From positions 46,800 through 110,799 of the forward strand of contig CAYNVQ010000006.1 in the NCBI GenBank assembly GCA_964400735.1: DNA of 64,000 nucleotides. The letters are read 5' to 3'. Below are positions 1,724 to 32,429 of the stretch, one piece after another (the first letter of the stretch is position 1; every line of letters starts with the position of its first letter). The DNA is from an uncultured Eubacteriales bacterium. Its GTDB lineage: Bacteria > Acidobacteriota > Aminicenantia > Aminicenantales > Aminicenantaceae. Under the pieces are notes generated by a model, which was not told where the DNA came from, did no database searches, and saw nothing but the letters and a program-made list of their open reading frames with translations. Made by a program: the position numbers and the translations under genes.

Positions 1724-3871
1724 ATGCTTGATAATCTTATAATCGCCGTCAAAAGGCAAAAAAAGCTGATCATCATTTTCCTGCTCACCATTTTTCTCCC
1801 TTCCATTGCGCTCAGTATTTTTGGAATAAGGGCCATAAGGAATGACAGATTCAGATTGGTTCAACAGCTGGAAGACGAGCACAAAAGGGCAGCCACCTTC
1901 TTGAAGAATCAGATTGACTCCCGGTTCGAGGATGTCGGAATCAAACTGCAGAATCTGGTACAGAATACAGCTTTCGGGCAAAAAAATTACGCCCTTATCA
2001 AAGAGGCACTCAACAATCAGTCTCAAAATGATCCGCTCATCGAACTCGTTTTTCTGGCCTATAAGAATGAGGAGCCGTTGTTTCCTCTTTTTCTGCCAAT
2101 TTCTCCAATTAGAGCGTCTCCAGTCTTATCTCCTCCGGGCAGCGCCCTGAGAGAGAGGCTGGAAAGGGCCCAGAGAATGGAATTCGGCCAGAAGAATTTC
2201 TCTGAAGCAGCGACCCTGTATGAGCAGATTCTCTCCCGCTCTGAAGACAAAGACATCCAGGCACAAATGCTCAACAATATGGCCCGATGTTACACGAAGT
2301 TGGAAAATTATGACAAGGCCATCCGCTGCTATTCACGAATCTGTGAGGAGTATCCTCAGTGTATGACCTCTTCTTCATTACCCTTGGACCTGATAGCCAA
2401 GATTCAGATTGTCAAATGCTACAGAAGCATGGGGGCTTACGATATCTTCTTAACATCCGCTCTAGATTTATACAGGAAGCTTCTCCAGAGGAAGTGGTGT
2501 CTGGACGCCGACCAATTCAATACCTATGCTTTAATGGTCGAAAAGGATCTTTCGGACCTTTTATCGATGGAAGAAAGAAAATCGGACAACGATGGCTACT
2601 ATCAAGAATTTGCGGAACTGAAAGAACTCCATCGCCAATTGGATGAGCAGTGGGAGGTGGTCAGAAATGTAAAAAACTCTATCCTACCCGAGCTCCAGGG
2701 AAGATTTACTCTGAATCCCGCTTATCCCTTCGCTCCTATCCGTCATTCAAAGACTATAGGCCAAAAAAATTACCTTGTTGTTGCCTCAGCTGTCCCTCAA
2801 AATGAAAATGAGGAGTTTATCGGCTTGCTCGGTGTCAAAATCGATGACCGGCATCTTCTCGACAGCGAAATTATCAGCATATTGGGTGATTTCCCCTTTT
2901 CACAAGAAGCGTCTTTATCCGTTTCCACTCTTTCAGGGAGAACTCTTTTAGAATATGGGAATCATTCTTATCATGATCCTAGCGCAACAACTTATTTCAA
3001 CGAAAGCTTCCCTCCCTGGAGAGTAGATTTTTTTCCGGCTGATAATGGAGGTTTAGGTGTCCTGAACCTGAGAAAAAGTTTCTATTTCTGGACTATTCTG
3101 ACTGTCCTGGTCCTCCTCACCTTTGGAGCTGTGCTCGTGGTCAGGACCGTCGCTCACGAGATGGAAGTCCTCAGGGTCAAGTCGGATTTTGTCTCCTCGG
3201 TTTCCCATGAGTTTCAAACTCCCATAACAGCCATTAAAGCTTCGATAGAGAGACTTCAGCAGGGAAAAGTCAGGACTCCTGAAAAAAGGGAGGAGTATTA
3301 TTCGATCATATCCAAAGATGCCGATAAATTGGGCAGCCTGGTGCGGAACATTCTGGATTATTCTAAAGTCGACGCTGGACGCAAACAGTATTTCTTCCAT
3401 GAAACAGATTTGGCTCAACTGGTCAAGGAAGAAATCATGAACTTTGAAAGAGACAAAATTTTCGCCAGGATTAAGATCGAAACCCAGATATCACCGGGTG
3501 TTCCAGTTATCGATGTAGACAAAGAAGCTTTTTCTTTAGCCTTCAATAATCTTTTGGAAAATGCTGTTAAATTTTCCCCTGGTCAAAAAAAGGTCTATGT
3601 GGAGGTCCGAGAGGAGGCAGAAAGTGTCAGGGTGGATGTCAGGGACAAAGGCTCGGGCATTACCTCCAGCGAAACGGATAAAATTTTCGATAAATTTTAT
3701 CAGGGAAAAAATGCAGCCCGGCAGTCCTTTAGAGGGACAGGTCTTGGATTGACATTGGTCAAGCATGTGATGGAAGCCCATGGGGGAAAGGTTCTAGTAG
3801 AAAGCGAAATTGGAAAGGGGAGCACATTTTCACTTATCTTTCCCCAAAAACATAGAGGGAGTAAGCCTTGA
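1724..3871 (+). CDS. Sensor histidine kinase, module 1: TM1, ~420-aa extracytoplasmic TPR-like sensor domain, TM2, HisKA, HATPase; no HAMP
   Basis: TM helices are LIIIFLLTIFLPSIALSIFGI and FYFWTILTVLVLLTFGAVLVV. The H-box SVSHEFQTPITAI follows TM2 directly. N, G1 and G2 boxes are present: [17 protein letters not shown] and GTGLGLTLV. Conserved FPPW and AExEFxQKN motifs are shared with the six paralogs in the window. Confidence 0.85.
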   Translation: MLDNLIIAVKRQKKLIIIFLLTIFLPSIALSIFGIRAIRNDRFRLVQQLEDEHKRAATFLKNQIDSRFEDVGIKLQNLVQNTAFGQKNYALIKEALNNQSQNDPLIELVFLAYKNEEPLFPLFLPISPIRASPVLSPPGSALRERLERAQRMEFGQKNFSEAATLYEQILSRSEDKDIQAQMLNNMARCYTKLENYDKAIRCYSRICEEYPQCMTSSSLPLDLIAKIQIVKCYRSMGAYDIFLTSALDLYRKLLQRKWCLDADQFNTYALMVEKDLSDLLSMEERKSDNDGYYQEFAELKELHRQLDEQWEVVRNVKNSILPELQGRFTLNPAYPFAPIRHSKTIGQKNYLVVASAVPQNENEEFIGLLGVKIDDRHLLDSEIISILGDFPFSQEASLSVSTLSGRTLLEYGNHSYHDPSATTYFNESFPPWRVDFFPADNGGLGVLNLRKSFYFWTILTVLVLLTFGAVLVVRTVAHEMEVLRVKSDFVSSVSHEFQTPITAIKASIERLQQGKVRTPEKREEYYSIISKDADKLGSLVRNILDYSKVDAGRKQYFFHETDLAQLVKEEIMNFERDKIFARIKIETQISPGVPVIDVDKEAFSLAFNNLLENAVKFSPGQKKVYVEVREEAESVRVDVRDKGSGITSSETDKIFDKFYQGKNAARQSFRGTGLGLTLVKHVMEAHGGKVLVESEIGKGSTFSLIFPQKHRGSKP

Positions 3872-4566
3872 TGAGAATAAGGGTGCTCATTGTAGAGGAT
3901 GATCAGGGTATCCTATTAAACCTCAAGGACGAATTCGAATCCTATGGGTGCACGGTTTTTTCAGCCGAAGATGGAAACGAGGGGCTGACCTTGGCAAGGG
4001 AAAAAAGGCCGGATCTGATCATATTGGACCTGATGCTTCCCGGCAAGGATGGCTATGAGGTGTGCCGAGAGTTGAGGAGCGAGGGCAGCAAGACGCCCAT
4101 CATCATGCTGACGGCCAAGACTCAAGAGATCGATAAGGTGCTGGGCTTGGAGCTGGGAGCCGACGACTATGTGACCAAGCCTTTCAGCCTCAGGGAGCTC
4201 ATGGCAAGGGTGAAAGCGGTGTTGAGAAGAACAGGAGAGCGGACAGAGGATCAAAAGGCCCTCGATACCTACAGCTTTGGCCGGATTGAGCTGGACTTTA
4301 AAAGATATGAGGCCAAAAAAAAGGGGAAAAAATTAAAGCTCACTCCTTTACAATTCCATATGCTAAGACTTCTCATTCAGAACAAGGGAGAAGTCCTTTC
4401 CAGAAATGAGCTGCTCGATGAAATCTGGGGAAAGGACAATGTTTGGATTTCGCACCGTACCATAGATAGCCATATGGCCAATATCCGAAGGAAGATAGAG
4501 GCCGATCCTGCCAACCCCAAACACATCCTCAGCATTAGAGGGGTGGGGTATAAGTTTGTGGATTGA
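3871..4566 (+). CDS. OmpR-family response regulator, module 1: receiver plus winged-helix
   Basis: Receiver motifs are present: LIVEDD, phospho-acceptor D in IILDLMLPGKDG, the T in LMLTA and the K in YVTKPF. The C-terminus carries a trans_reg_C domain, ...SIRGVGYKFVD. The ATG overlaps the HK1 stop as TGATG. The track start at 3868 is an upstream TTG. Confidence 0.9.
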   Translation: MRIRVLIVEDDQGILLNLKDEFESYGCTVFSAEDGNEGLTLAREKRPDLIILDLMLPGKDGYEVCRELRSEGSKTPIIMLTAKTQEIDKVLGLELGADDYVTKPFSLRELMARVKAVLRRTGERTEDQKALDTYSFGRIELDFKRYEAKKKGKKLKLTPLQFHMLRLLIQNKGEVLSRNELLDEIWGKDNVWISHRTIDSHMANIRRKIEADPANPKHILSIRGVGYKFVD

Positions 4567-4643: not shown

Positions 4644-6827
4644 GTGGGAGAAAGAAAGAGCTTAAATAGCATAAGACAGGTGAGAAAATTGGACATGTAT
4701 AAAAGATTCCTGCTCCCTTCTTTCGTATTATGCTTTAGCTTTCTCATTCTCACCACTTATTTAGCGGCACAGCAAACCGCAGGAGAGATGTTCCAGGAGG
4801 CGCTCTACTTGGAAGAGGCCGAAGGAGACCTGGAGCGGGCCATCGAGCTTTACCAGAAGATTTTGGAGCAGTTTGCAGGAGAAAGGGAGGTGGCTGTCAA
4901 GGCCCAACTCCACATCGGCCTCTGCTATGAAAAATTGGGCTTGAAGGAGGCTCAGGAAGCTTTCGAGAAGGTTATCGAAAATTTTCCGGATCAAGAAGAA
5001 GAGGTGAAGATCGCGCGGCAAAAATTGGCCCGTCTGGTGAAGGCGAAAGCCGTGATCGAGGATAAAAAAACAGAGCTGAGTATGCAGAAGGTATTCACTG
5101 GTATCAACAGGGATTTTGTCGGTACGCCATCTCCTGATGGGCGATACCTTTCCACGGTGGATTGGGAGACCGGAGACCTGGCTATCAAGGAGATCCCTTC
5201 CGGCAAACTGCGCCGCCTCACCCATAAGCACAACTGGGTAGAGTCGCAGGAGTATGCTCTCGTCTCCGTTTGGTCTCCTGATGGGAAAAAATTGGCCTAT
5301 TCATGGATGAATGAGGATCGCTTTTTTGAGCTTCGTACTATTGGCTTGGATGGCTCAGAGCCGCAAGTCCTTTATCGAAATAAAGAAAATTTTTATGTTC
5401 ATCCATTTGACTGGTCCCCAGATGGAAGATATGTCTTAGCAGGACTGGGAAAAGGCCAGAGGATCACTCAGATAACGACGATCTCAGTAAAGGACGGAGC
5501 AGTCAGGATTCTAAAAAAACACAAGGTTAATACCGGTTTAAAAGATGACATTTATGAGTCTGGATTTTACCTGCCCGATGGGAAGACCATTATCTTCGGT
5601 TTTGTCGCAGAAATACCAGGCTCTCGAGGAAGTGATATTGCGCTTCTTTCAGCCGAAGGTGGTGGTGAGCAAGTCATTCTTGTCGAGGACCCTGCACATG
5701 ACGTGCCGCTCGTTTGGGACCCTCATGGCGAAAGGCTTCTTTTCATGAGCGACCGGACAGGGAATATGGATCTATGGGCCCTGGAGATGAAACAAGGCAA
5801 ACCTCAGGGAAAGCCTTACCTCCTCAAAAAAGATATAGGAAGGATAACCGCTCTAGGATTCACGGATGATGAGGACCTGTATTATGTGCAGTACGCAGGT
5901 ATGAACGATGTTTACACGGCAACTCTAGACCCCATGACAAATTCTTTTTCAGCACCTCCACAGAGGGCCACGAAGCTGTTTATCGGAGCCAATAGGTCAC
6001 CTGATTTTTCTCCGGACGGGAAATCCCTGGCCTATATTTCTGAGAGATCATACGGACCCGGACGTTTCACAACGCCGGTCATATGTATTCAATCTTTGGG
6101 CTCTGGCGAAAAGCGCGAACTCGTTACGAAACTCGATCGCATATATTTTATCCGCTGGTCGGCTGATGGGAAAAATTTCTATTCTCATGGATTCGACGGA
6201 AAAGGACGGACAGGCCTTTTTTCCATCGACGGCAAAACAGGTGACCTAGATTTATTATTGGATTGTGGAGAAGAGGAGTACATTCCTGAGCTCGATGTGT
6301 TTCCAGATGGGAAAAGGATCGTGTACAAGATGTGGGAGCAAAAGAGGCAGGGAGATGGATATATCATGAGCATTAGGGTTCGAGATATCCAGAGTGGGAA
6401 AGAAGAAGAGATCTATCGCCACGAGAATGCCAGTCAGACCGATTGTGTGACCTTATCTTCGGATAGCCAATGGATAGCCTTCGATGACCGGGTTCGCTTC
6501 CCGACATTAAACGTCATTCCTGCCACAGGAGGAGAAGCTGAGGAGCTGTATCGAATGGAGTTTGGAGAGAGTATCCTTTCATTGGCTTGGAGGCCGGGGG
6601 AACAAGAAATATTTTTTGTTAAAGGAGCAGAACTTAATCAACTGTGGAGGGTAAATTTAGAGGATAAAGAACCGCAGAGGATGGACTTTTCGATGAGAAG
6701 TCTGGGTGATTTACGCTTCCATCCGGATGGGAGGCATATTGCCTTCCATGCAGGGTATGTAGAAGTCGAGGTCTGGGTGATGGAAAATTTGCTGCACTTG
6801 GAAAGAAAAGACAAAGTTTTTAGATAA
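4644..6827 (+). CDS. Secreted TPR-like plus PD40/TolB-like beta-propeller protein, module 1
   Basis: The probable true start is the ATG near 4695, giving MYKRFLLPSFVLCFSFLILTTYLAAQQ as signal peptide. The N-terminal helical domain carries the family motif AVKAQLHIGLCYEKLG. There are multiple PD40 repeats: SPDGRY, WSPDGKK, WSPDGRY, FSPDGKS, FPDGKR and HPDGRH. The family C-terminal motif is VWVMENLLH. Confidence 0.8.
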   Translation: MGERKSLNSIRQVRKLDMYKRFLLPSFVLCFSFLILTTYLAAQQTAGEMFQEALYLEEAEGDLERAIELYQKILEQFAGEREVAVKAQLHIGLCYEKLGLKEAQEAFEKVIENFPDQEEEVKIARQKLARLVKAKAVIEDKKTELSMQKVFTGINRDFVGTPSPDGRYLSTVDWETGDLAIKEIPSGKLRRLTHKHNWVESQEYALVSVWSPDGKKLAYSWMNEDRFFELRTIGLDGSEPQVLYRNKENFYVHPFDWSPDGRYVLAGLGKGQRITQITTISVKDGAVRILKKHKVNTGLKDDIYESGFYLPDGKTIIFGFVAEIPGSRGSDIALLSAEGGGEQVILVEDPAHDVPLVWDPHGERLLFMSDRTGNMDLWALEMKQGKPQGKPYLLKKDIGRITALGFTDDEDLYYVQYAGMNDVYTATLDPMTNSFSAPPQRATKLFIGANRSPDFSPDGKSLAYISERSYGPGRFTTPVICIQSLGSGEKRELVTKLDRIYFIRWSADGKNFYSHGFDGKGRTGLFSIDGKTGDLDLLLDCGEEEYIPELDVFPDGKRIVYKMWEQKRQGDGYIMSIRVRDIQSGKEEEIYRHENASQTDCVTLSSDSQWIAFDDRVRFPTLNVIPATGGEAEELYRMEFGESILSLAWRPGEQEIFFVKGAELNQLWRVNLEDKEPQRMDFSMRSLGDLRFHPDGRHIAFHAGYVEVEVWVMENLLHLERKDKVFR

Positions 6828-7059: not shown

Positions 7060-8058
7060 TTACTGAGTAACGGGATTTTTGATGAAGTCGATGTAGAAAT
7101 AGAAATCGCCTTTTGCTTCCATGGAATAGTACCATGTCGCTCTACCTTTATTGCGCTCACAGTACCGCTCTTGGACCTTAAGGTTAATGTATTCTGGAAG
7201 ACTAAGACTTGCAGGGAAAGTTCTGTTTAATAAATCATAATCAAGCACCCTTATTCTCCACACCCCGTCACTTCCTATTCCGTATTCTGCTTCATATAAT
7301 CCTTCGTTTAACCTCTCTATCGCAATATTCATAGGCTCACCTTTTTCCACCAGAGCTTCATAATTGATATTTCTGTAGAATTCAATATCATGATAGGCCG
7401 GGTTGGCTTCGCATTTATCCCGATAACGAGCTACCATTATAAAATAATCTCCGTTTCCTCCAGGAGCACAAGCACTTCCAAATCCATAAATTTCTCCAGG
7501 TATCATGCTTTCAATATCTTTGTCGGAGGTAATCCAAACATAAATGTAGAAAGACACATAGTCAGGGTGAGGGTGAGTGCTGTTCAAGAAATCGGCCATA
7601 CAACCAGGGTCGCAATCAAGACCTATACAATCTCCTCCTGCACATAAATCATCAGGGAATTGGCAGCAAGGCCTGCCCTCATCAGGATACGCTATATCAT
7701 CCCAATTACCAACGTTTACACCCTGAAAGCGTACATATTTAGATGGAGGGCTTCCGAGATTTTCGTTTTTAAGTACAAAACTAAAGTCGTTCTTTTCGAC
7801 TTTCACCTCGGTAGAAGAGCCATTTTCATACAAACCATCAGTACTTTCCATTCCATAAAGCATATTACCTGAATCTTCGATTGGAATTCGAACCGCCCAG
7901 GTGGCTTGTGGTTCACTCGGTTTATCGGGTTTCCCTGGATTTTCAGGTTTTTTCTGGATTTGGACCTGAGCCTGCATAAGGCTGATGCCGGCCAGAAACA
8001 CAACCATCACAAAGACACTTAAAATCCCCAAAAAACTTAGTTTTCGGACTTTTCTCAA
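7060..8058 (-). CDS. Hypothetical secreted cysteine-rich protein
   Basis: The N-terminus MRKVRKLSFLGILSVFVMVVFLAGISLMQAQ is a signal peptide, followed by a Pro/Lys-rich linker, KPENPGKPDKPSEP. A Cys cluster, CCQFPDDLCAGGDCIGLDCDPGC, is present. No family recognised. Confidence 0.5.
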   Translation of the reverse strand: MRKVRKLSFLGILSVFVMVVFLAGISLMQAQVQIQKKPENPGKPDKPSEPQATWAVRIPIEDSGNMLYGMESTDGLYENGSSTEVKVEKNDFSFVLKNENLGSPPSKYVRFQGVNVGNWDDIAYPDEGRPCCQFPDDLCAGGDCIGLDCDPGCMADFLNSTHPHPDYVSFYIYVWITSDKDIESMIPGEIYGFGSACAPGGNGDYFIMVARYRDKCEANPAYHDIEFYRNINYEALVEKGEPMNIAIERLNEGLYEAEYGIGSDGVWRIRVLDYDLLNRTFPASLSLPEYINLKVQERYCERNKGRATWYYSMEAKGDFYFYIDFIKNPVTQ

Positions 8059-8393
8059 TTTAACCTCCTTTTCTGATTTTTACTGATTTTAGATTGCCAG
8101 GTTTAAAAAATTTTTATTTTCCATCACCTCCTCTCTTTTTGTTCAGATGTCGCTGTGGTTGTTTTTAATATAGGAATTTTCTGAATGGCTTGTGTTAAAG
8201 AACTGTGCAAATTTCCCACATATTCCGTGGAAGCTATATCGAAAGACCACCTTCTTCCAGAGGATCTGTAGAAATCAGAGGAAGGCGTTTGATTAGTAGG
8301 GGAGCCTGCCCAAGAAGGGAGCCGACCTGAAATGGTTATTAAAGTTAAACAATTTTTAGTTTCTGTTCCTGGTCTGGTGGATCCGGATAACCG

Positions 8394-11390: not shown

Positions 11391-13529
11391 ATGCTTGAAA
11401 ACCTCAGAATCGCTGTTAAAAGACAAAAGAGAATGATCCTGATTTTTTTCCTGACCATTTTCATCCCATCGATTTTTCTTGGCATTTTCGGTATTCGGGC
11501 TATCAGGAACGAAAGATACAGAGCAGCCAAACAACTGGAGAACGAATACCGAAGAGCAGCCGAGTATTTGAAATCCCAGGTCCATGGTCACTTTAGAGAA
11601 CTTGGATCAGGCTTCCAAAAATTGGCGCATTCCTCATTTTTAGCAGATAAGGATTATTCCAGGATCAAAAATGAGATTGTCAATCAGCTCGCTGACAATC
11701 CTCTGATGGAATTCGTATTTATCGCTTATGAAGATAGTGAGCCGTTTTTTCCTCAGTTTCAACCGGTCCCGAAAGATAGGATATCTTCGCTCCCCAAATT
11801 TACGAGTTCCCAGCTCGCCCGGTTGAGAAGAGCTGAGGGATACGAGTTCGAACAGAAAAGATACGACATGGCCATCTCTGTGTATGGCGAACTTTTCGGC
11901 CAATTGGAAGATCAAAATCTTAAAGCACAAATGCTTGCCGACATGGCACGGGCTCAAGTAAAGATGAAGGATTATGGAAAGGCGGTAAACAACTACAAGA
12001 CCGTTATCGATAATTATAAATTCAGTTTGAGCTCTTTAGGTTTGCCGCTGGCCGTGTTCAGTGGATTGCAAGTTATAAACTGCTACAAAGAATTAGGTGA
12101 TCTCGAGAGTGCCCTGAAGGCAGCATTGACTCTATACCGTGATATTTGCGACATGACCTGGGATTTAACCGAAGCGCAGTTCAAAACCTATTGTTCTCTG
12201 CTCGATGAGGCCATTGCGGAAATCGGTGCTGGCGTACAAAAGGAGCCCCTCGGGAGAGATTTTTCCAAGGGATTGGATCGATTGAAAGTCTCCTACGGAG
12301 AAAGAATCGAACAATGGCGGGCCATGAAGGATATCGAACAGGATATCATTCCCGAGTTGAGGAATGGAGCCGCTCGTTCTTCTGATTTCGCCTCTTTTCC
12401 CCATTTTTATGCAAAAGTGATCGGTAACACTCCTTACCTTATTGCATCTGTTTCGATTCGAAACGTCGAAGATGCCGGATTTTCCGGCATTGTCGGGGCC
12501 AGAACAGATCATGAATATTTGACAGAAAATATACTGCATCGGTTGATCGAAAACATGGATTTCAGTGAAGAGACCAATATCGTTATATCCACTCTCGATG
12601 GTAGGCCCTTGTTGGGGAAAAAAGACCCATCAGATGAGCAGGCATCCATCACGGAATTTTTTGTTGATAATTTTCCTCCGTGGAAGATCGAATTTTTCCG
12701 CAGCAGCGCTTCCGGCTTTGCAGGAGTGGATCTAAGAAAAAGCTTTTATTTTTGGACGGTCGTCGTACTCCTGATCGTTCTGATATTCGGCTCTGCTTTG
12801 ATCATGAGAACGGTCTCTCAAGAAATGGGAGTGCTCAAGATGAAATCCGATTTTGTCACTTCTGTCTCCCACGAGTTCAAAACCCCTCTGACTTCGATAA
12901 AGGCTTTAATCGAAAGAATCCAATGGGGTAAGGTCAAGGACGAGGCGAAGATGGATCAGTATATTTCCGTCATCGCTCAGGATACGGATAAATTGACTCG
13001 CTTGGTGGGGAATATCCTGGATTTTTCCAAAATGGAAGAAGGAAAAAGAGAATTCGATTTTGCGGAAACGGATGTGGCGCAGTTGGTGGCCTCTCAAGTC
13101 AAGGAATTCCAAAAGGACAAATTCCGGAAGGATTTTTCTATCCTAACTTTCATTCAGGAGGACATGCCCAAATTGACTGTTGATAGAGAGGCTTTTTCCC
13201 AGGCCTTGATTAATCTACTGGACAACGCAGTGAAATTTTCCCCACAGGAAAAAGAAATCCATGTCCATCTGGGCGCAGATGAGGAAAACGTTATCCTGGA
13301 GGTCAAAGATAAAGGAATCGGAATCCTTCCAGATGATCTGTATAAAATATTCGAAAAATTCTACCAGGGAAAAAATGCACTCAAGCAGACGGTCAAAGGC
13401 GCGGGTTTAGGATTGACTTTGGTCAAGCATACGGTCGAAGCCCATGGGGGAAGAGTATCCGTCAAGAGCAAGGTTGATGAGGGGAGTACTTTTTCTCTAA
13501 TTTTTCCTGTAAAAAGAGAATCGAAGTGA
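11391..13529 (+). CDS. Sensor histidine kinase, module 2; closest paralog of HK1
   Basis: The N-terminus MLENLRIAVKRQKRMILIFFLTIFIPSIFLGIFGIRAIRNERYR is nearly collinear with HK1. FPPW precedes TM2, FYFWTVVVLLIVLIFGSALIM. The H-box is SVSHEFKTPLTSI. An HATPase domain with GAGLGLTLV is present. Confidence 0.85.
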   Translation: MLENLRIAVKRQKRMILIFFLTIFIPSIFLGIFGIRAIRNERYRAAKQLENEYRRAAEYLKSQVHGHFRELGSGFQKLAHSSFLADKDYSRIKNEIVNQLADNPLMEFVFIAYEDSEPFFPQFQPVPKDRISSLPKFTSSQLARLRRAEGYEFEQKRYDMAISVYGELFGQLEDQNLKAQMLADMARAQVKMKDYGKAVNNYKTVIDNYKFSLSSLGLPLAVFSGLQVINCYKELGDLESALKAALTLYRDICDMTWDLTEAQFKTYCSLLDEAIAEIGAGVQKEPLGRDFSKGLDRLKVSYGERIEQWRAMKDIEQDIIPELRNGAARSSDFASFPHFYAKVIGNTPYLIASVSIRNVEDAGFSGIVGARTDHEYLTENILHRLIENMDFSEETNIVISTLDGRPLLGKKDPSDEQASITEFFVDNFPPWKIEFFRSSASGFAGVDLRKSFYFWTVVVLLIVLIFGSALIMRTVSQEMGVLKMKSDFVTSVSHEFKTPLTSIKALIERIQWGKVKDEAKMDQYISVIAQDTDKLTRLVGNILDFSKMEEGKREFDFAETDVAQLVASQVKEFQKDKFRKDFSILTFIQEDMPKLTVDREAFSQALINLLDNAVKFSPQEKEIHVHLGADEENVILEVKDKGIGILPDDLYKIFEKFYQGKNALKQTVKGAGLGLTLVKHTVEAHGGRVSVKSKVDEGSTFSLIFPVKRESK

Positions 13530-16671: not shown

Positions 16672-18648
16672 ATGCATTCTCTTCCTTCCAGCAGATTGAA
16701 GAGAAGTCTGCGCAAACAGGTCATCCTTTTCGGCATATCTGTCCTTTTGCCCGCCCTCGTTCTTTTCGTTTTTATCGTCCGTTTGAACAAGCAGGATAAT
16801 GAGCTGAGAAAAAAGAGAGCGGTTGAGGCTCAGCAGCAGAAGGCCGAAGAGATAGGAAGGCACCTAGCAGAAAGACTGGAGAAAACGGAAAGGATTATTC
16901 TGCAGGAATTGGCTTCGGATTCCGGCAATAGCCAAAACGTCTATCGAATGCATCCTGAATTGGTCTTTATAGGAAGCATTATCAATGAAAAACTTCTGAT
17001 GCCTTGGGAGGAATCCAAAGAAAAGAAACTGACCTCAGAAGGCAGCCGCTCCGAACACCTCTTAATTCAGGCCCAGCAGGCTGAGTTTGAAAAGAACGAT
17101 CTGCGGCTTGCCCTATCGATATTAAAAAGAGCTCAATCTTTAACGGATTCCTCTTTCCAAAGGTGTTTTATACAGGTTCAGCAAGGAAGGGTTCTCTTAA
17201 AATTGGGCGATGAGGAAGGGGCCCGTCGTGTTTATCGTGAGATTCTCGATCAGCCGGGTGATCTTGCTGATGAGTATGGCATCCCTTTTTTCCTTTATGC
17301 CGCTGATCGTCTTTCGGAATTGGACCCAGAGTTCGAGCCCATCCTGTACCGGCTGGAAGGTTTGATGGAAGAAATCCGCTGGCTTCCCTCCAGTGCGTTT
17401 TATTTTATCCGGGACATTGCCGTGAAGATTCAAGAGCGGTCACAGGATTCAGCTCTTTTGGAGAGAATAGAGAACCTGGGACAAACAGTGGAGAGTTCCC
17501 TTTTAGATCTTGAAAGACTAGAGTCGCTTAAAGGTTTTGTATCGAGCTGGAGGCTGCGTCATCGTTCCCTTAATAGGTCCGAAGATTCAAAGACCTGGAG
17601 ATCCCACGGAGATATTCCCTGGATCGTCGGCCTTAGTGAGTTGAACGAAGGCCAACCGCAGGTCCTCCTCTCCTTCCATGGGCCTCGTATCTTAAGCACG
17701 GTGATCGAGGAGACTGGTTTGGCTGTGACTTTTCCAGGTTCTTGTCGGATAGCTATAAGCCCTACCGGAGAGGGCATTTCTCCAGGTGGATCTTTCGAGG
17801 GATTCCAGCTCCACTTCGATGAAACCGATGTTTCTGCCTGGTCCAAGTCTTCTCTCCCTTTTCCCATCCTGTACTGGTCGATCCTTATTCTTGTCATCGG
17901 ATTTACCGCTTTCGGAGGTTATCTGCTCTGGCGGGATATCGGCCGGGAATTGGCGATCGCGGAAATGAGATCGCAGTTTACAGCCACTGTTTCCCACGAA
18001 CTCAAAACCCCGCTGACTTCCATACGCATGTTTGCCGAAGCCTTGACTATGGGAGTGCATAAGCAACCTGAGGCCCAAAAGGAATATCTGCAAACGATCA
18101 TCAGCGAGAGCGAACGCCTGAGCCGGCTGCTCAACAATGTCCTCGATTTCTCCAAAATCGAACAGGGAACCAGGACTTACCGATTAGAGCCTACATCACT
18201 CGAAGAAGTCATCCATGCGGCAGAAAAAGCTATGGCCTTTCCGATGAATCAAAAGGGATTTAGTCTCCAGGTTGAGGTCGAGGAAGGAATCCCCGAGATC
18301 CGAGCCGACAGAGATGCCCTCGAACAGGCCGTCCTCAACCTCCTTCACAACGCCATGAAGTATTCGGGAGATAGCCGGAAAATCCGACTTAAGCTTCACA
18401 GAAATGGAGATACGGCCTCCATCGATGTCATCGACCACGGCATCGGCATATCGGAGGAGAACAAAGGTCGAATTTTCTGCAAATTCTTCAGAATTCCAGG
18501 GATCGAAAACCAAACCATTCCTGGCACGGGATTGGGTCTGACCATTGTTTTCCACATCGCAGAATCACACGGAGGCAGGGTAGAAGTTTCCAGCCAGCCC
18601 GGAGCAGGAAGCACCTTTTCTATTGTTCTTCCCCTGGAGGCCAGATGA
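16672..18648 (+). CDS. Sensor histidine kinase, module 3; closest paralog of HK6
   Basis: The N-terminus is TM1 followed by a coiled region. The sensor domain carries AEFEKN and YGIPFFLYAADRL motifs. TM2 is FPILYWSILILVIGFTAFGGYLLW. The H-box is [12 protein letters not shown]. The HATPase region includes GTGLGLTIV. Confidence 0.85.
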   Translation: MHSLPSSRLKRSLRKQVILFGISVLLPALVLFVFIVRLNKQDNELRKKRAVEAQQQKAEEIGRHLAERLEKTERIILQELASDSGNSQNVYRMHPELVFIGSIINEKLLMPWEESKEKKLTSEGSRSEHLLIQAQQAEFEKNDLRLALSILKRAQSLTDSSFQRCFIQVQQGRVLLKLGDEEGARRVYREILDQPGDLADEYGIPFFLYAADRLSELDPEFEPILYRLEGLMEEIRWLPSSAFYFIRDIAVKIQERSQDSALLERIENLGQTVESSLLDLERLESLKGFVSSWRLRHRSLNRSEDSKTWRSHGDIPWIVGLSELNEGQPQVLLSFHGPRILSTVIEETGLAVTFPGSCRIAISPTGEGISPGGSFEGFQLHFDETDVSAWSKSSLPFPILYWSILILVIGFTAFGGYLLWRDIGRELAIAEMRSQFTATVSHELKTPLTSIRMFAEALTMGVHKQPEAQKEYLQTIISESERLSRLLNNVLDFSKIEQGTRTYRLEPTSLEEVIHAAEKAMAFPMNQKGFSLQVEVEEGIPEIRADRDALEQAVLNLLHNAMKYSGDSRKIRLKLHRNGDTASIDVIDHGIGISEENKGRIFCKFFRIPGIENQTIPGTGLGLTIVFHIAESHGGRVEVSSQPGAGSTFSIVLPLEAR

Positions 18649-21631: not shown

Positions 21632-23770
21632 ATGGGTTTTAGACTGAACTGGCAGCGAAGATCCACTGTTATTCTGGCCGGAGTCACTCTGGTTATTGGC
21701 TTTATATTGATCATGTTGGCTATCCGGGAGGCCGAGCGGGAAAAGCTGGCCAGGGAAACAGATTTAGCAAAAGAAAAGCAGAGATACGCCACTTTGTTTA
21801 GGGATGAGATCGACTCTCTTTTTTCAGGCATTGAAAAAGAAATAGCTACATCCATAGCCAATTCAGAAAAACAGCAAAATGTACAAAATCTGCCGGATGT
21901 CTGCCGCCAGATTGCCGCCAACCAAAACCTCATTGACGACGTTTTTCTAGCCGGTGCGAAAGGTGAATTGATATTTCCCCTCAAAGATCCTTTGTTCCTC
22001 GCATCGGAGAGGAGGCGACTTGCCGCTAAAAATCTAGGGAAAATCGAGGGTATCAGTCTTTTTAGGGCAGCGGAATCGGCCGAGCTCGCAGCCCAAAATC
22101 TGCCTCTGGCCATCGAGTCCTACAAGAATTTGCTCGATTCCGTACCGGATGATTCTTCCAGGGCCCTGGTTTTAAACCGTCTTGCCAGAACCTACCTGAA
22201 ATCGGGAAATTTGAACCAAGCCCTGAATATATACAATACGATCCTCGATAAACATGCCCATGAACTGAGCTCGGAAGGTATTCCCCTAGGGGTCATCTCC
22301 TTTTTCCAGATAGGGACTATCACCTTGAAGACCGAGCCGGAGAGGGCCGGGCAGACCATTCTGGAATTCTACTCTCACCTGATCAGCTCTGAATGGCCTT
22401 TGGATAAAGGCCAGTTTCAATTTTACCGAAATGTCATTCGAGAAATGGAGGAAACCTGGAGATCCGAAGGCGGCGCTGCCGAAGAGAACGACAATTTCCG
22501 GAACCGCTGGGAGGAGCTCGAAAAACAAGCGGATGCCAAGCTCGAAATTTTGACTGCGGGGGAAGACTTTATCGATAAGATCGTTCCCCTCGTTCAAGCC
22601 AGAGTATTCGAATTCGACAGAAATGACTCAGGATTTTCTCGCTTCTCCAAAATCATCGGAAATACCCTGTTCCTCATATCTGCCACGACTGTTCAACAGG
22701 ATATTGTCCTGGGAATCCGTATCGATGAAAACGTTCTGGTTCAAGATCGACTACCCATGATACAGGAGAGAATTCCGGTCCCTGAGGATTGGATCGTTCG
22801 GATCGTCGATCTCGCCGGCCGAGTTATCTTTGGAGAGGAAGAACCGGCATCTATGAAAGCTGATCTTGATTCAGCTTTCATCCTGGGATTCGCTCGAGAT
22901 TTTCCACCCTGGCAGATCCGCATTTTCCAGCAGTCCCCTCATTCCCTCGAGAAGCAGTACAATATGAAGCGCAATATCTATATCCTGATCGTGGCAGTGG
23001 TGATGGCAGTTTTATTCTTGGGTGGTTTTATGGCCATCAGGAGCACAGCAAAGGTGGTGGAGCTGGCCAGGTTGAAATCGGAGTTCGTCGCCACAGTCTC
23101 CCATGAGTTCAGGACTCCTCTGATGTCTATCCGGTATCTATCCGAAATGCTCGACGGGGGGCGCGTGAAAGGGGAGGACAAGAAAAAGCTTTATTACAGC
23201 AAGATCAACAAGGAAAGCGAGCGCTTGAGCCGGCTCATCGAGAATATGCTCGATTTTTCGAAAATCGAAGCCGGGATGAAGGAGTACAAGTTTGAAGATT
23301 TGTCTATCGAAGAGATGACTGAGGAAGTTTTGACCAGGTTCAAGGAATACATGACCGATAAAAAAATGACCTTGGAATGTGAGATTCAGGGTGCCCTGCC
23401 TGTCATTCACGCGGACAGAGAAGCGATCTCCAGGGCGCTGTTCAACCTGCTCGACAACGCTGTGAAATATTCGGGAAAGAATCCTGTGATTCATTTGAGA
23501 GCCTTCCGAGACGGAGAGGCTGTGTTTCTGGAAGTCCAGGACGCAGGTGCCGGAATCAGCAAGGACGACCAGAAAAAAGTGTTCGAGAAATTTTACCGTT
23601 CCTCCCACTCCGCCCCTAAAAGTGTCGAAGGAAGTGGCATCGGCCTTACCCTGGTCGACCACATCGTCAAAGCCCACGGCGGTCAGGTGATGTTGGAGAG
23701 CGATTTGGGTCAGGGGACCACGGTGACAATCAAGCTTCCGGTTTTGCCGAAAGGACAAAAAGATGACTAA
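21632..23770 (+). CDS. Sensor histidine kinase, module 4; closest paralog of HK5
   Basis: The N-terminus MGFRLNWQRRSTVILAGVTLVIGFILIMLAIREAEREK is collinear with HK5. FPPW precedes TM2, IYILIVAVVMAVLFLGGFMAI. The H-box is VSHEFRTPLMSI. GSGIGLTLV is present. Confidence 0.85.
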   Translation: MGFRLNWQRRSTVILAGVTLVIGFILIMLAIREAEREKLARETDLAKEKQRYATLFRDEIDSLFSGIEKEIATSIANSEKQQNVQNLPDVCRQIAANQNLIDDVFLAGAKGELIFPLKDPLFLASERRRLAAKNLGKIEGISLFRAAESAELAAQNLPLAIESYKNLLDSVPDDSSRALVLNRLARTYLKSGNLNQALNIYNTILDKHAHELSSEGIPLGVISFFQIGTITLKTEPERAGQTILEFYSHLISSEWPLDKGQFQFYRNVIREMEETWRSEGGAAEENDNFRNRWEELEKQADAKLEILTAGEDFIDKIVPLVQARVFEFDRNDSGFSRFSKIIGNTLFLISATTVQQDIVLGIRIDENVLVQDRLPMIQERIPVPEDWIVRIVDLAGRVIFGEEEPASMKADLDSAFILGFARDFPPWQIRIFQQSPHSLEKQYNMKRNIYILIVAVVMAVLFLGGFMAIRSTAKVVELARLKSEFVATVSHEFRTPLMSIRYLSEMLDGGRVKGEDKKKLYYSKINKESERLSRLIENMLDFSKIEAGMKEYKFEDLSIEEMTEEVLTRFKEYMTDKKMTLECEIQGALPVIHADREAISRALFNLLDNAVKYSGKNPVIHLRAFRDGEAVFLEVQDAGAGISKDDQKKVFEKFYRSSHSAPKSVEGSGIGLTLVDHIVKAHGGQVMLESDLGQGTTVTIKLPVLPKGQKDD

Positions 23771-29689: not shown

Positions 29690-30281
29690 TTGTATTCCCT
29701 ATATTGAAAGTAATTTTTAGCTTATCTTAAGTTAACACAGACCATTTTCCCTGTCAAAAGAATCAATTCCTGCGAGTTGTCGCCACTAAATCTTCACCGA
29801 ATCATTACATTTCCTAAACACAAGTCGTATGGAAAAATCATATATTTTCATCAGGTATGATTGAGGGATGGATATCGGTCGGCCCATGGTACGTGAAACT
29901 TTTACAATTTCTTTACAATATCATGACGTTTCGGAGGAAAATAGAACATAATTTATCAAATATCCGCTGGAAAGAAGTCACATCAGAGCCGGTTAACCAA
30001 AACACAATAGAATCGCAACTTTAACTCAACCTTCCATCTTTCAATACATATAAAATTGTTTTTGTGATTTTCCATCTTGAAAAAAGTCCCGTCCTATATT
30101 TAAAGAATTTCCAGGATTTCCAAAAATTTCTATCCTCTTGTATCTCTCGTTTCTCGCGAGATCATTCCCTGCTCTGTTTGACTTCGGGATTTGCCTGTAT
30201 TACATTTCATTATAAGGAAGGGGAAGATATTGATGATCCCCAATGGCTCATGATTTTTACGTAATACCAAGAGCACACAAA

Positions 30282-32429
30282 ATGAAAACGAAACTGGACT
30301 GGCAGAAAAGAGCGCTGATTTTATTCGCCGCCCTAATACTGATTCTCAGCGTCATCCTCACCATATTCGCCATTCGGGAAGCTGAAAGAGAAAAAATCCT
30401 AAGGCAGAGAGAAATAAACCAAGAGCAGCAGAGAACGGCAGACGCGATCGTCGATCAGGTTAGAGAAAATATCTCGGAGGCAGAAAAGCGGATACTCAGG
30501 CTGCTTGGCCAATCACAAGATCGGTTTAGTGAAGACACGCTGAGCGAAACCGCTGGCAGGATAGATGAGAATGAACCTTTGGTCTCCGACGTCTTTTATA
30601 TCGTGGATGATGGACAAATCTACTTTCCTCTTTTCAAACCACTTTACATCCTCTCTGAAAAATCAGAATACTTGGGGGAAATCCCGACTGAAATCGAGAA
30701 AGATCCACTTTTAAAAGCCGCGGAGGCTGAGGAATTCAAAAGGAGAAATTATTCTCAGGCCATCAGAAATTATAGACAATTGCTGACTTCGACTTCCGAT
30801 AGAACCGCTGGCGCACTGCTCCTGAACCGGATGGCGCGGTGTTATTTGAACTCGGGGGATCCACTCAGGGCTGTCGATACATATAAAAAGATTGTAAACG
30901 GCTATGAAAAGGAGGTCGGTTCCGACGGAATTCCCTTTGCCTTGATGGCTCTTTTCCAAATGGGGTCGATATATGACCGTATGGATAGGAAGCCAGAAAG
31001 TGCGGAAGCCTTCCTAGAACTTTATGATGGTCTATTGGAAGCTGAATGGTCTTTGAGCCGGTCCCAGTTCGATTTCTACATGAGGAAGGTCAAAGCGGAG
31101 CTGTCCGGAGTGAGTGCGGAAATAGATGATGAGGAGACCAAAAAGGCCCTCGCTGAAAAACAGGCGGTCCTACGACAGCTGGAAAAGGAAAAATTGAAAA
31201 GGATGGCCACAATTGAAGATCTCCACCAAAGGGTTCTTCCAGTATTGATGACAAGAAAAAAAACTGCTCCCGTAATTCCTGAGATGTTTTCTCATTTTTC
31301 TGACACAAGCGGAGAAAATACGCATCTTGTCTCTTATGTTATGGATGAAGCAAATTCGATTATAGGATTCACTATTGATGAGAACTATTTGAAAAATGAA
31401 CTTCTTGCCTCAATAGAGGAAAAGGATACATCCAGAGATGGCTGCTCCGTTGAAGTCGTTGATAATAAACACAATTTGGTGCTAGGCAAGGATATTTCTC
31501 GAGCGGAGAACAACGGGCCTCCGCTGCGTTATTCGAAGGATTTTGAAGAAAATTTTCCTCCCTGGACAGTTAGGATTTACCAGACCGCTCCCAATGCGGC
31601 TCAGCGAGAATTCAATATGCGGCGCAATATCTATATTTCCCTGGTTGCGGTTGTCATCGCGGCCCTTCTTTTCGGCGGCTTGTTGGCGATCAGAAGCACG
31701 GCCAAGGAATTGAAACTGGCCAGGTTGAAATCCGAGTTTGTCTCCACCGTTTCCCATGAGTTCAGGACGCCGCTGACCTCCATCCGATATTTGGCCGACC
31801 TGCTCCAGAGGGGGCGTGTGGGAAAAGAGAAAAGGAAGCAACAGTATTACGAGACTATCACGCAAGAGAGCGAGCGGCTCAGCCGCTTTATCGAGAACAT
31901 CCTTGATTTCTCGAAGATCGAAGCCGGAGTGAAGGAATATAAGTTTGCCGAGGTGGATGCGGTCGAGATGTGCCGGGATATCGTCTCCAGATTTCAGCAG
32001 CAGGTGGATCCTCAGGAGTTCATCATAGAAAGTGAAGTCCGATCGGAATTGCCCCAAATTTTTGCGGATAGGGAGGCCCTTTCCAGGGCAATTTTCAACT
32101 TACTCGATAATGCCGTGAAGTATTCTGGTGACAGCCGGAAGATTTCTGTACGGGCATGGCCGGATGAGTCGAATGTATTTATAGAAGTGGAAGATGAAGG
32201 AGTCGGTATCGGGAAAGAAGAGCAGCAAAGGGTTTTCGATAAATTCTACCGGTCGGAAACTATCCACGAGAGCAGTGTCAAGGGAAGCGGGATCGGCCTG
32301 ACCATCGTGGACCATATCGTCAAAGCTCATGGGGGAGAAGTGTTCCTGGAAAGCGTATTAGGAAAAGGCACCAAAGTAAGGCTCCGTCTTCCCAGAGATA
32401 AAGAAATAAAGGTGGATGAAAATGGATAG
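30282..32429 (+). CDS. Sensor histidine kinase, module 5; paralog of HK4
   Basis: The preferred start is the ATG at 30282, MKTKLDWQKRALILF..., which is collinear with HK4 MGFRLNWQRRSTVIL. The track start at 30243 is upstream in frame. FPPW precedes TM2, IYISLVAVVIAALLFGGLLAI. The H-box is VSHEFRTPLTSI. GSGIGLTIV is present. Confidence 0.85.
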   Translation: MKTKLDWQKRALILFAALILILSVILTIFAIREAEREKILRQREINQEQQRTADAIVDQVRENISEAEKRILRLLGQSQDRFSEDTLSETAGRIDENEPLVSDVFYIVDDGQIYFPLFKPLYILSEKSEYLGEIPTEIEKDPLLKAAEAEEFKRRNYSQAIRNYRQLLTSTSDRTAGALLLNRMARCYLNSGDPLRAVDTYKKIVNGYEKEVGSDGIPFALMALFQMGSIYDRMDRKPESAEAFLELYDGLLEAEWSLSRSQFDFYMRKVKAELSGVSAEIDDEETKKALAEKQAVLRQLEKEKLKRMATIEDLHQRVLPVLMTRKKTAPVIPEMFSHFSDTSGENTHLVSYVMDEANSIIGFTIDENYLKNELLASIEEKDTSRDGCSVEVVDNKHNLVLGKDISRAENNGPPLRYSKDFEENFPPWTVRIYQTAPNAAQREFNMRRNIYISLVAVVIAALLFGGLLAIRSTAKELKLARLKSEFVSTVSHEFRTPLTSIRYLADLLQRGRVGKEKRKQQYYETITQESERLSRFIENILDFSKIEAGVKEYKFAEVDAVEMCRDIVSRFQQQVDPQEFIIESEVRSELPQIFADREALSRAIFNLLDNAVKYSGDSRKISVRAWPDESNVFIEVEDEGVGIGKEEQQRVFDKFYRSETIHESSVKGSGIGLTIVDHIVKAHGGEVFLESVLGKGTKVRLRLPRDKEIKVDENG

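Follow-up and report, generated by a model that had tools for sequence, protein, structure and literature searches.

Seven paralogous histidine kinases with a sensor region that probably combines a Cache/PDC-like scaffold and an inserted TPR domain

Related sensor systems and the seven kinases

No other extracellular sensor is as abundant in prokaryotes as the Cache domain, which is taken to bind small molecules; in ordinary Cache domains, the helices that cover the pocket lie between strands beta2 and beta3. LuxQ/LuxP and TorS/TorT are co-sensor systems in which the kinase has a PAS/PDC-type domain in the periplasm that cooperates with a periplasmic binding protein, the product of a separate gene of the same operon. 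Hybrid two-component systems of Bacteroides (e.g. BT4663) carry a periplasmic double beta-propeller sensor of the Reg_prop/Y_Y_Y families fused to the kinase, and they occur as many paralogues per genome with adjoining outer-membrane barrel genes. The window studied here (the whole stretch of 64,000 nucleotides that was analysed) encodes seven kinases that share individual features with each of these systems. The kinases, the main elements of HK1 and the two genes that follow it are:

1724..3871, + strand: HK1, class I histidine kinase of 715 aa (ORF; HisKA and HATPase_c by Pfam)
1766..1822, + strand: HK1 TM1, residues 15-33, after the basic segment KRQKK (Kyte-Doolittle peak 2.75)
3086..3142, + strand: HK1 TM2, residues 455-473 (Kyte-Doolittle peak 2.55)
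3179..3379, + strand: HK1 DHp domain (HisKA), residues 486-552 (Pfam)
3206-3208, + strand: HK1 phospho-accepting H495, 21 residues past the end of TM2
3518..3850, + strand: HK1 HATPase_c catalytic domain, residues 599-709 (Pfam)
3868..4566, + strand: OmpR-family response regulator (Response_reg and Trans_reg_C), overlapping the HK1 gene by 4 nt
4644..6827, + strand: secreted protein comprising a TPR at its N-terminus and two beta-propellers of the PD40/Tricorn type, third gene of the triad (Pfam, NCBIfam, synteny)
11391..13529, + strand: HK2 paralogue, sensor architecture as in HK1
16672..18648, + strand: HK3 paralogue, short sensor (~360 aa), FPPW motif (motif 3) degenerate
21632..23770, + strand: HK4 paralogue
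30243..32429, + strand: HK5 paralogue
40572..42542, + strand: HK6 paralogue, short sensor (~360 aa)
51939..54047, - strand: HK7 paralogue, motif 3 = FPISW

Exactly two strong hydrophobic segments were found in each of the seven kinases (Kyte-Doolittle), with 360-420 residues between them, and in all seven Pfam places HisKA and HATPase_c after TM2. The initial annotation had described seven paralogous kinases, each with TM1, an extracytoplasmic region of about 400 aa and TM2; ORFs, hydrophobicity and Pfam agree with this description, although the sensor reaches ~400 aa in five kinases and only ~360 in HK3 and HK6. The sensor region is predicted from the sequence to be extracytoplasmic, since the ATP-dependent kinase core must be cytoplasmic and the sensor would thus face outward. 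A cytoplasmic location of the 400-aa region was considered and is ruled out by the two TM segments together with the cytoplasmic kinase core that follows TM2.

HK1 possesses an H-box in the HisKA domain, a GHKL ATPase domain and an adjoining gene for a receiver plus winged-helix regulator, as is characteristic of class I HisKA/HATPase_c kinases. Its kinase core is nearest to the PnpS/PhoR/WalK models in the NCBIfam scan, with every score under the respective cut-off. No HAMP, PAS or Cache domain was matched by Pfam in any of the seven kinases at E<=0.1. The absence of HAMP matches and the position of H495 relative to TM2 support the earlier statement that TM2 abuts the DHp domain without an intervening HAMP. 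One partial homologue carries the NCBI label "HAMP domain-containing histidine kinase", which is a generic name.

A TPR insert within a mixed alpha/beta sensor

The sensor of HK1 was modelled with AlphaFold (pLDDT 84, pTM 0.75). The model begins with a helix (sensor residues 2-44) and a strand (71-78), continues with seven helices (105-245) and a long helix (255-295), and ends with three strands (304-310, 313-324, 327-338), a helix (340-353) and four further strands (361-367, 372-376, 386-389, 397-403). The features of this region, numbered as in the whole protein, are:

1832..1960, + strand: long stalk helix continuing from TM1, residues 37-79 (AlphaFold, sensor residues 2-44, pLDDT 75-92)
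2039..2092, + strand: first beta-hairpin IELVFLAYKNEEPLFPLF, residues 106-123 (strand at sensor residues 71-78)
2141..2563, + strand: TPR insert of seven helices (3.5 repeats), residues 140-280 (Pfam, profile alignment, AlphaFold, Foldseek)
2168..2230, + strand: motif 1, AQRMEFGQKNFSEAATLYEQI, residues 149-169, covering helix B and the last part of helix A in TPR repeat 1 (HMM alignment)
2375..2386, + strand: motif 2, forming the turn and N-cap in front of TPR helix A3; HK1 reads SLPL, the family consensus being G-[IL]-P-[LF]
2591..2713, + strand: long return helix after the TPR insert, residues 290-330 (AlphaFold, sensor residues 255-295)
2738..3037, + strand: beta-rich Cache/PDC-like region, residues 339-438 (AlphaFold secondary structure; Foldseek neighbours)
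3008..3019, + strand: motif 3, FPPW, residues 429-432, start of the last beta-strand, 22 residues before TM2

The insert is a TPR domain with at least three tandem repeats that form a helical array. Three Pfam models exceed their cut-offs in HK1 (TPR_2 31.7 bits against 27; TPR_1 31.1 against 27.8; TPR_19 27.9 against 25), and the family profile aligns to consensus TPR proteins with E-values of 1e-21 to 1e-8, covering profile positions ~100-230. A Foldseek search of the PDB with the whole sensor retrieved three-repeat TPR domains with a TM-score on the target of 0.65-0.72, the best structural matches of the insert being CHIP/STUB1 and CTPR3; repeats 1 and 2 also match the TPR consensus. The HK1 insert differs from CHIP/STUB1 in its location inside the sensor of a membrane kinase, in its predicted periplasmic exposure and in the family-specific invariant residues E153 and R188; no EEVD-type clamp residues were identified in it. 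Besides these two positions, A162, Y166, A199, Y203, P220 and W258 are the residues of note in the insert.

In the initial annotation the ~400-aa domain as a whole was called TPR-like. TPR helices are indeed present, but they account for only ~140 of the 417 modelled sensor residues, and the rest is modelled as a stalk helix and beta-rich modules. The notion that the entire region is a new, essentially helical TPR-like fold with no kinship to known sensor families draws on the fact that TPR models alone match the region by sequence and that the remainder falls into no Pfam or NCBIfam family. It is largely refuted by the model, in which eight beta-strands and a 43-residue stalk helix lie outside the TPR (pLDDT mostly 80-95), by the confinement of the TPR matches to their limited span of the family profile, and by the Cache-superfamily sensors found as structural neighbours of the remainder (see below), and we regard it as highly improbable.

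Motif 1, by HMM alignment to the CTPR consensus YKQGDYDEAIEYYQKAL, is the first TPR repeat. It was found in all seven kinases, with A149, E153 and A162 invariant among them. The initial annotation had all three motifs recurring in every paralogue, which holds for motif 1, whereas motif 2 varies (SLPL in HK1, GHPF in HK7) and retains P220 alone as an invariant position, and motif 3 is degenerate in HK3 and HK6, where it reads FEGF/FQGL or DVSAW/FSTPW depending on the alignment. Consequently the "invariant FPPW" of that description does not stand: the exact motif occurs in just four of the seven kinases (HK1, HK2, HK4 and HK5), and only the Trp can be aligned across all of them.

Conservation was calculated over 76 representatives of the family, no two of which share more than 50% identity. 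In the TPR insert it amounts to 100% for E153, 99% for A162 and R188, 95% for Y166 and 91% for F154, in motif 2 to 87% for P220 and 79% for G218, in motif 3 to 86% for W432, 79% for P430, 72% for F429 and 68% for P431, and in the first hairpin to 86% for F110 and 74% for P121. These values answer the check proposed earlier, conservation of the motifs in remote homologues. The three motifs are family signatures. Their sharing appears to be more than chance, as the sensors of the seven paralogues are only 13-33% identical and yet the motifs are strongly conserved over the 76 representatives. Within the sensor, conservation is highest in the TPR and lowest in the PDC-like parts.

Fold-level similarity of the remaining sensor to Cache domains

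By sequence, the part of the sensor outside the TPR could not be linked to any described family. The NCBIfam and Pfam scans of the seven kinases matched the sensor with TPR models alone, and a comparison of the whole-sensor profile with PDB profiles likewise returned TPR proteins alone, in keeping with the earlier statement that the domain cannot be assigned to PAS, Cache, CHASE or NIT from its sequence. Models of the Cache clan (dCache_1/2/3, sCache, CHASE, LuxQ-periplasm and others) found no match in the seven kinases at a Pfam E<=0.1. When 46 isolated C-terminal modules were scanned at E<=5, Pfam gave scattered single matches with no common family and none from the Cache clan. A profile of the C-terminal module produced four weak matches in the PDB, among which the only sensor domain was the sCache_3_1 domain of B. 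subtilis PhoR (3cwf, E=0.15). A homologue search with the C-terminal module alignment, directed at TPR-less or Cache-annotated relatives, was empty and did not recover the family members themselves. Our literature search found no paper on this kinase family or on a TPR-inserted Cache domain.

The structural comparison gives a different picture. Foldseek searches of the PDB with the whole sensor identified the dCache entries of KinD (4jgo, 4jgp, 4jgq and 4jgr; E ~1e-3, probability 1.0), and, TPR proteins aside, KinD ranks first among the structural neighbours in the search with the whole sensor as well as in that with the C-terminal piece. With the C-terminal piece alone, 16 of the 19 top matches are extracytoplasmic sensors of the Cache superfamily, including KinD, Htc10, CqsR, McpU, AHK4, TlpQ and PctD, and PacA, TlpA and LuxQ (2hj9_D) follow further down the list. 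These matches are partial (TM 0.17-0.38, Foldseek E 1e-3 to 1e-2), the low TM-scores reflecting alignments that cover just a portion of each structure. Modelled by itself, the C-terminal piece reaches a pLDDT of 69, and its Foldseek E-values are therefore weak, though the list of matches is coherent.

Other features of the region agree with the anatomy of Cache domains. A long N-terminal helix extending from TM1 is a Cache hallmark according to PMC4822843, whose Table 1 assigns 4JGO to dCache_1, 3T4J to CHASE, LuxQ-periplasm to the Cache clan and 3CWF to sCache_3_1. The HK1 sensor has such a helix and is placed between the two TM helices of a signalling protein, and its nearest solved neighbours outside the TPR are, as partial matches, Cache domains; to the sequence models of the Cache clan it shows no significant match. 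From the order of secondary-structure elements in the model, the hairpin IELVFLAYKNEEPLFPLF would correspond to beta1-beta2 of a membrane-distal PDC module. In the beta-rich region the model has three strands, a helix and four strands, and it includes the hairpin SLSVSTLSGRTLLEYG.

Like HK1, KinD is a histidine kinase whose extracytoplasmic domain is flanked by two TM helices and has a long N-terminal stalk helix and beta-rich PAS-like modules. The two differ in size, as the HK1 sensor has ~420 aa compared with ~200-270 aa in an ordinary dCache domain, and in the additional 140-aa TPR module and 40-residue return helix. Unlike dCache domains, the HK1 sensor has no recognisable ligand-pocket residues, matches no dCache, sCache or CHASE sequence model, and shows only four short strands in its membrane-proximal part, as judged from the order of elements alone, where each module of a Cache sensor has an antiparallel sheet of five strands in PAS order.

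These limits of the comparison leave some room for the beta-rich part being a genuinely new alpha/beta fold, whose likeness to Cache (a long helix and an antiparallel sheet) would be superficial and whose Foldseek matches would be convergent or spurious. The TM-scores of 0.17-0.38, E-values of 1e-3 or worse, the lack of a significant sequence or profile match and the modest pLDDT of the isolated C-terminal model are all compatible with this view. We nevertheless consider it unlikely: Cache-clan sensors are a tiny fraction of the 350,542 chains in the Foldseek target set and yet make up most of the top 19, and the position between TM segments, the stalk helix and two helix-plus-hairpin units with a D/S-x-G turn fit Cache anatomy. 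The occurrence of KinD, Htc10, CqsR, McpU, TlpQ, AHK4 (CHASE) and LuxQ as structural neighbours is what argues for the Cache likeness of the remainder, and on the basis of the model the sensor is probably not a new fold, contrary to the possibility raised in the initial annotation. A clear HMM match to a characterised sensor domain, which was to have overturned that possibility, did not appear at the sequence level, and the match is seen at the level of the fold only.

Gene linkage with a secreted propeller protein

HK1, the OmpR-type regulator and the secreted TPR plus double-propeller protein form a triad that is repeated seven times in the 64 kb. The same gene order was found in 31 complete related loci, in a genome scan that used a closer alignment and leans towards HK1/HK2-like members; the triad also occurs in loci L001, L002 and L039. 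It is seen as far away as a Caldithrix-labelled MAG whose sensor is ~25% identical. The propeller proteins carry N-termini resembling Sec-type signal peptides, so that, as for periplasmic co-sensors, an accessory protein of the envelope is encoded together with the kinase.

We estimate at roughly 0.6 the probability that the ~420-residue region in HK1 and the other six kinases consists of a Cache/PDC-like scaffold with an inserted 3.5-repeat TPR, and that this TPR docks the propeller protein as a co-sensor. The scaffold would consist of the stalk helix from TM1, the beta-hairpin and the beta-rich region that ends in the FPPW strand before TM2, with the TPR most likely placed between beta2 and beta3 of the membrane-distal module, as the order of secondary-structure elements suggests. 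Since no other part of the sensor is as well conserved as the TPR, whose repeats 1 and 2 have the invariant E153 and R188 on their first helices, we infer that the TPR binds a protein or peptide shared by all paralogues. The best candidate is the secreted TPR plus double-propeller protein, the product of the second gene downstream, the putative docking being suggested by the near-strict gene linkage. In the manner of LuxP and LuxQ, the propeller protein would be the actual receptor of the ligand, and its occupancy could be relayed via the Cache scaffold and the last strand to TM2, whose helix is predicted to run straight into the DHp domain and would set the phosphorylation of the adjoining OmpR-type regulator.

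The proposed system resembles LuxQ/LuxP in its separately encoded extracytoplasmic partner, and LuxQ itself is among the structural neighbours of the sensor. It differs from both LuxPQ and TorTS in that the partner is made of a TPR and two beta-propellers rather than a periplasmic binding-protein fold, that the docking surface is predicted to be an inserted TPR, and that the genes are ordered kinase, regulator, partner. With the Bacteroides hybrid systems it has in common two beta-propellers as an extracytoplasmic unit of a kinase pathway, here the putative ligand binder, a high copy number and outer-membrane barrel neighbours. Here, in contrast, the propellers belong to a separate secreted protein of the PD40/Tricorn type (the Pfam scan gave no match to Reg_prop) and the kinase has a Cache-like and TPR domain of its own.

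Several observations weigh against specific docking. The identity matrix of the propeller proteins shows a correlation of r about 0 with that of either the sensors or the regulators, compared with 0.82-0.86 between kinases and regulators. Orthologues of HK2/RR2 in other genomes adjoin a non-orthologous propeller protein (best-match test, 31 triads), and a PD40 propeller paralogue within the window lies behind an ECF sigma/anti-sigma pair; the partner exchange and this paralogue weaken the docking proposal. Moreover, in the most divergent family member retrieved another gene lies downstream of the kinase, and the model shows disorder in the 14 residues that link the last strand to TM2. Because the mirror-tree correlation is missing and partners are exchanged across the 31 triads, we make no claim of specific co-evolution.

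Some of these data can be accommodated if the Cache-like and TPR fold is kept while a small molecule or peptide is bound by the kinase itself, in a PDC pocket or the TPR groove, and the propeller protein is a regulated product of the system rather than a co-sensor. In favour of this view, the regulator gene is followed by the propeller gene in the same direction with short gaps; the propeller gene behind the ECF sigma/anti-sigma pair also fits a regulator located next to its target, propeller genes have been exchanged relative to the kinase-regulator pairs, and direct binding of small ligands is described in the structure entries of KinD and other dCache sensors. With conservation highest in the TPR and lowest in the PDC-like parts, however, it would be unusual if the seven paralogues each bound a different small ligand through the TPR. 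The linkage is also near-absolute across related loci, reaching as far as the Caldithrix-labelled MAG, and both the kinase sensor and the propeller protein are extracytoplasmic. Direct sensing thus seems rather doubtful to us, and we prefer the Cache/PDC-like scaffold with a docking TPR.

A wider interpretation, offered tentatively and with more doubt than confidence, is that the triads represent an unrecognised class of three-component sensing systems, a "split" analogue of the Bacteroides hybrids, in which the propeller protein docks on a TPR that occupies the pocket position of a Cache domain. The secreted double propeller might capture an envelope- or polymer-derived ligand and then dock through a TPR-to-TPR or TPR-to-peptide interface. 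A conserved interface would let kinases swap propeller partners, and thereby explain both the tandem expansion (seven triads in 64 kb) and the partner exchange. If this is true, the commonest small-molecule sensor would have been converted into a protein-docking sensor. On the preferred reading itself, a protein-binding TPR in the presumed pocket region, together with the propeller linkage, would widen the known range of the Cache scaffold. The family would also provide a first handle on signal perception in Aminicenantes, an abundant uncultured lineage of sediments with massively duplicated triads.

Pfam and NCBIfam hold no model for this kinase family. The domain boundaries given above, the signature residues E153, A162, Y166, R188, P220 and W432 and the synteny rule can be used for its annotation. 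Our family search collected 150 representatives at E<1e-30, ~140 of them being kinases about 700 aa long that match the sensor over its full length. The family comprises ~140 clusters at 50% identity, nearly all of them from Aminicenantes and related uncultured bacteria.

Kinase genes and membrane topology

The HK1 gene (1724-3871, + strand) encodes a 715-aa histidine kinase in which Pfam models identify HisKA (486-552) and HATPase_c (599-709) domains. The only models matched in its N-terminal 480 residues are those of TPR repeats (150-213), with TPR_2, TPR_1 and TPR_19 scoring above their curated cut-offs. The kinase cores are closest to the NCBIfam models of PnpS, PhoR and WalK, with every score under the cut-off, and no NCBIfam model matches the sensor region. 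Six paralogues share this layout:

Paralogues of HK1 (domain layout as in HK1)
11391-13529, + strand: HK2
16672-18648, + strand: HK3, short sensor
21632-23770, + strand: HK4
30243-32429, + strand: HK5
40572-42542, + strand: HK6, short sensor
51939-54047, - strand: HK7

Each of the seven kinases is followed by an OmpR-type regulator (RR1-RR7), and each regulator by a ~720-aa protein with N-terminal TPR and PD40/Tricorn-type beta-propellers; we call this three-gene unit a triad.

A hydropathy scan found exactly two strong membrane segments in all seven paralogues (in HK1, TM1 15-33 and TM2 455-473), which enclose 360-420 residues, in agreement with the large sensor that the initial annotation had placed between two TM segments in every kinase. 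Because the ATP-dependent core follows TM2, we infer from this topology that the enclosed region must be periplasmic. The claim that TM2 runs into DHp without HAMP also holds: H495 lies 21 residues past TM2, and none of the HAMP, PAS and Cache models of Pfam matches the kinases at E<=0.1; the helical continuity from TM2 to DHp is direct. Coupling of this kind occurs commonly in histidine kinases and is in itself nothing new. The short-sensor paralogues HK3 and HK6 have ~20 residues fewer in the proximal strands and lack the ~16-residue linker from the conserved Trp to TM2, which brings their last strand directly to the membrane.

Conserved motifs and predicted fold of the sensor

The three motifs proposed in the initial annotation are real family signatures, with some corrections to their wording. 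Motif 1 (AExEFxQKNY type) occurs in every one of the seven kinases; its A149, E153 and A162 are invariant. Motif 2, G(I/L)P(L/F), recurs in its invariant P220, but the rest varies (SLPL in HK1, GHPF in HK7). The "invariant" FPPW (motif 3) is exact in only four of the seven; HK7 has FPISW, while HK3 and HK6 read FEGF/FQGL in one alignment and DVSAW/FSTPW in another.

Conservation of HK1 positions among 76 representatives, each <=50% identical
E153: 100%
A162: 99%
R188: 99%
Y166: 95%
F154: 91%
P220: 87%
W432: 86%
G218: 79%
P430: 79%
F429: 72%

Two further conserved features, absent from the initial annotation, are a hairpin around F110/P121 and the invariant R188. A profile of the seven sensors compared with PDB sequences matched TPR proteins only, and in the residue-level profile alignment F154-x4-Y159-x2-A162-x3-Y166 aligns onto the TPR consensus YKQGDYDEAIEYY; motif 1 is therefore the first TPR repeat. 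An AlphaFold model of HK1 residues 36-452 (alignment of 42 sequences; pLDDT 84, pTM 0.75) places motif 2 at the turn and N-cap ahead of the fifth TPR helix, and FPPW at the start of the final beta-strand ahead of TM2.

Elements of the AlphaFold model (sensor numbering; add 35 for HK1 numbering)
2-44: stalk helix
47-64: short helices
71-78: strand, then disordered loop
105-245: seven helices (TPR)
255-295: 41-residue helix
304-310, 313-324, 327-338: three strands
340-353: helix
361-367, 372-376, 386-389, 397-403: four strands

The predicted TPR-like character of the ~400-aa sensor is thus borne out for only about one third of the modelled domain. Foldseek searches of PDB with the whole sensor returned two types of neighbours: three-repeat TPR domains (TM on target 0.65-0.72) and the KinD dCache sensor from B. 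subtilis (4jgo, 4jgp, 4jgq, 4jgr; E ~1e-3, probability 1.0). Residues 285-452 were modelled separately to take away the competition from TPR. The model was weaker (pLDDT 69), which suggests that this module depends on the helix and hairpin at the N-terminal end. Even so, Cache-superfamily sensors dominate its Foldseek neighbours (KinD, Htc10, CqsR, McpU, AHK4, TlpQ, PctD, PacA, TlpA and LuxQ; E 0.009-1). In the published classification, 4JGO belongs to dCache_1, 3T4J to CHASE, 3CWF to sCache_3_1 and LuxQ-periplasm to the Cache clan; the Cache hallmark is a long N-terminal helix continuing TM1, and Cache domains bearing large insertions exist (PMC4822843).

The sole hint of Cache at the sequence level was a match of the C-terminal-module profile (46 sequences) to the PhoR sCache_3_1 domain (3cwf, E=0.15), which pairs the helix and hairpin "vsivisdlsGrlllgs" with "VSASVIDTDGKVLYGS" of PhoR. 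Two units of this helix-plus-hairpin type occur in the family, at residues 106-123 (consensus vEevFlvd.dG.i.FP) and 396-411. Location, stalk helix and structural neighbours support placing the sensor in the Cache superfamily; since no Cache sequence model matches it, we file it as Cache-like at the fold level only, outside every defined Cache family. From the order of elements, the model would follow a dCache-like plan: stalk helix, distal beta1-beta2, TPR and return helix replacing the usual pocket helices, distal beta3-beta5, linker helix, reduced proximal module and TM2, with TPR probably inserted between distal beta2 and beta3.

Distribution of the triad and the proposed role of the propeller protein

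A profile search covering all 1.84 billion representatives yielded 150 matches at E<1e-30, ~140 of them kinases of ~700 aa whose entire sensor is matched and the remainder long multi-TPR proteins. None of the family homologues bears a functional name; the kinase homologues (top identity 71%) are labelled as Candidatus Aminicenantes or Acidobacteriota MAGs. Scanning one genome per species revealed 35 related loci, mostly in MAGs labelled Aminicenantes and in a few labelled Bacteroidota or Caldithrix. The order kinase, OmpR regulator, propeller homologue is found in 31/31 triads with sufficient downstream DNA, with tandem triads in several genomes, and is kept beside a ~25%-identity member in a Caldithrix-labelled MAG (downstream protein E=4e-83 against the propeller profile). 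In the most distant member examined (P0190 at locus L038, 4493-8024), motif 1 reads GEDLEY and motif 3 FSFW; an OmpR regulator comes next, the third gene is unrelated and without signal peptide, and the propeller protein is absent there. In a MAG labelled Bacteroidaceae (locus L032, 6111-10491) the triad looks fragmented, with the sensor spread over two ORFs, a truncated regulator and a short propeller ORF, which could reflect pseudogenisation or frameshift errors of long-read assembly. Our literature search found no paper on this kinase family, a TPR-in-Cache sensor or the triad; new are the TPR module within a Cache-like scaffold, a family without any existing model, and the conserved unit of three genes together with its expansion.

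The propeller proteins carry Sec-type signal peptides, and their best-conserved stretch is the N-terminal TPR. In 9/9 propeller paralogues of the window this region matches the TPR section of the profile built from the kinase sensors (ORFs of the window, E 5e-10 to 1e-4), whereas the generic TPR ORF 12-797 does not; the resemblance may reflect common origin or a homotypic interface. The family combines a periplasm-facing composite domain with an OmpR partner and a secreted propeller protein whose gene is almost always linked to that of the kinase. The binding groove of TPR domains is formed along the first helices of the repeats, and the conserved TPR (E153 on helix A1, R188 on helix A2) could form a protein or peptide docking site common to all paralogues. 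The propeller protein would be the docking partner and true ligand receptor, specificity would reside in the variable PDC parts and the propellers, and the signal would pass from the last strand through TM2 to DHp. The kinases would work like Cache-type transmembrane sensor kinases, and together with the propeller protein possibly in the manner of LuxPQ.

In a rival reading, the propeller gene would simply be a regulated target of the system. Among window triads 1-7, sensors and regulators pair by similarity as 1-2, 3-6 and 4-5 (r = 0.82-0.86) and the kinase tree agrees with the regulator tree, whereas the propeller proteins do not track this pairing (r about 0), and PD2 is an outlier. In other MAGs (L014, L018, L024), close orthologues of HK2/RR2 are accompanied by a non-orthologous propeller with only ~41% identity to any propeller of the window; PD1 orthologues are retained beside HK1 orthologues. 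The window encodes nine TPR + PD40 proteins versus seven kinases. One lies directly behind an ECF sigma/anti-sigma pair, which couples the propeller type to a second kind of transmembrane regulator; another is in tandem with a triad gene:

36497-37087: ECF-type sigma factor
37091-38074: zf-HC2 anti-sigma factor
38151-40445: TPR + PD40 paralogue
43415-45580: propeller gene of triad 6
45520-47706: additional TPR + PD40 paralogue, overlapping the preceding gene by ~60 nt

The lack of correlation, the propeller exchange and the ECF-linked paralogue agree with docking through a generic, exchangeable interface, and to the same degree with a regulated target.

Between triads 1 and 2 (within 7060-11198, - strand) lie genes for a 934-aa outer-membrane barrel protein (CarboxypepD_reg + OMP_b-brl_4) and an adjoining 332-aa protein whose N-terminus resembles a signal anchor and which matches no family, both possible targets of the neighbouring regulators. 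A 763-aa ORF (61686-63977, - strand) without Pfam matches at E<=0.001 adjoins a DUF4953 met-zincin (58721-61165). Divergent from triad 7, a 1046-aa Ser/Thr protein kinase (54342-57482) combines an N-terminal zinc ribbon with a long C-terminal TPR array.
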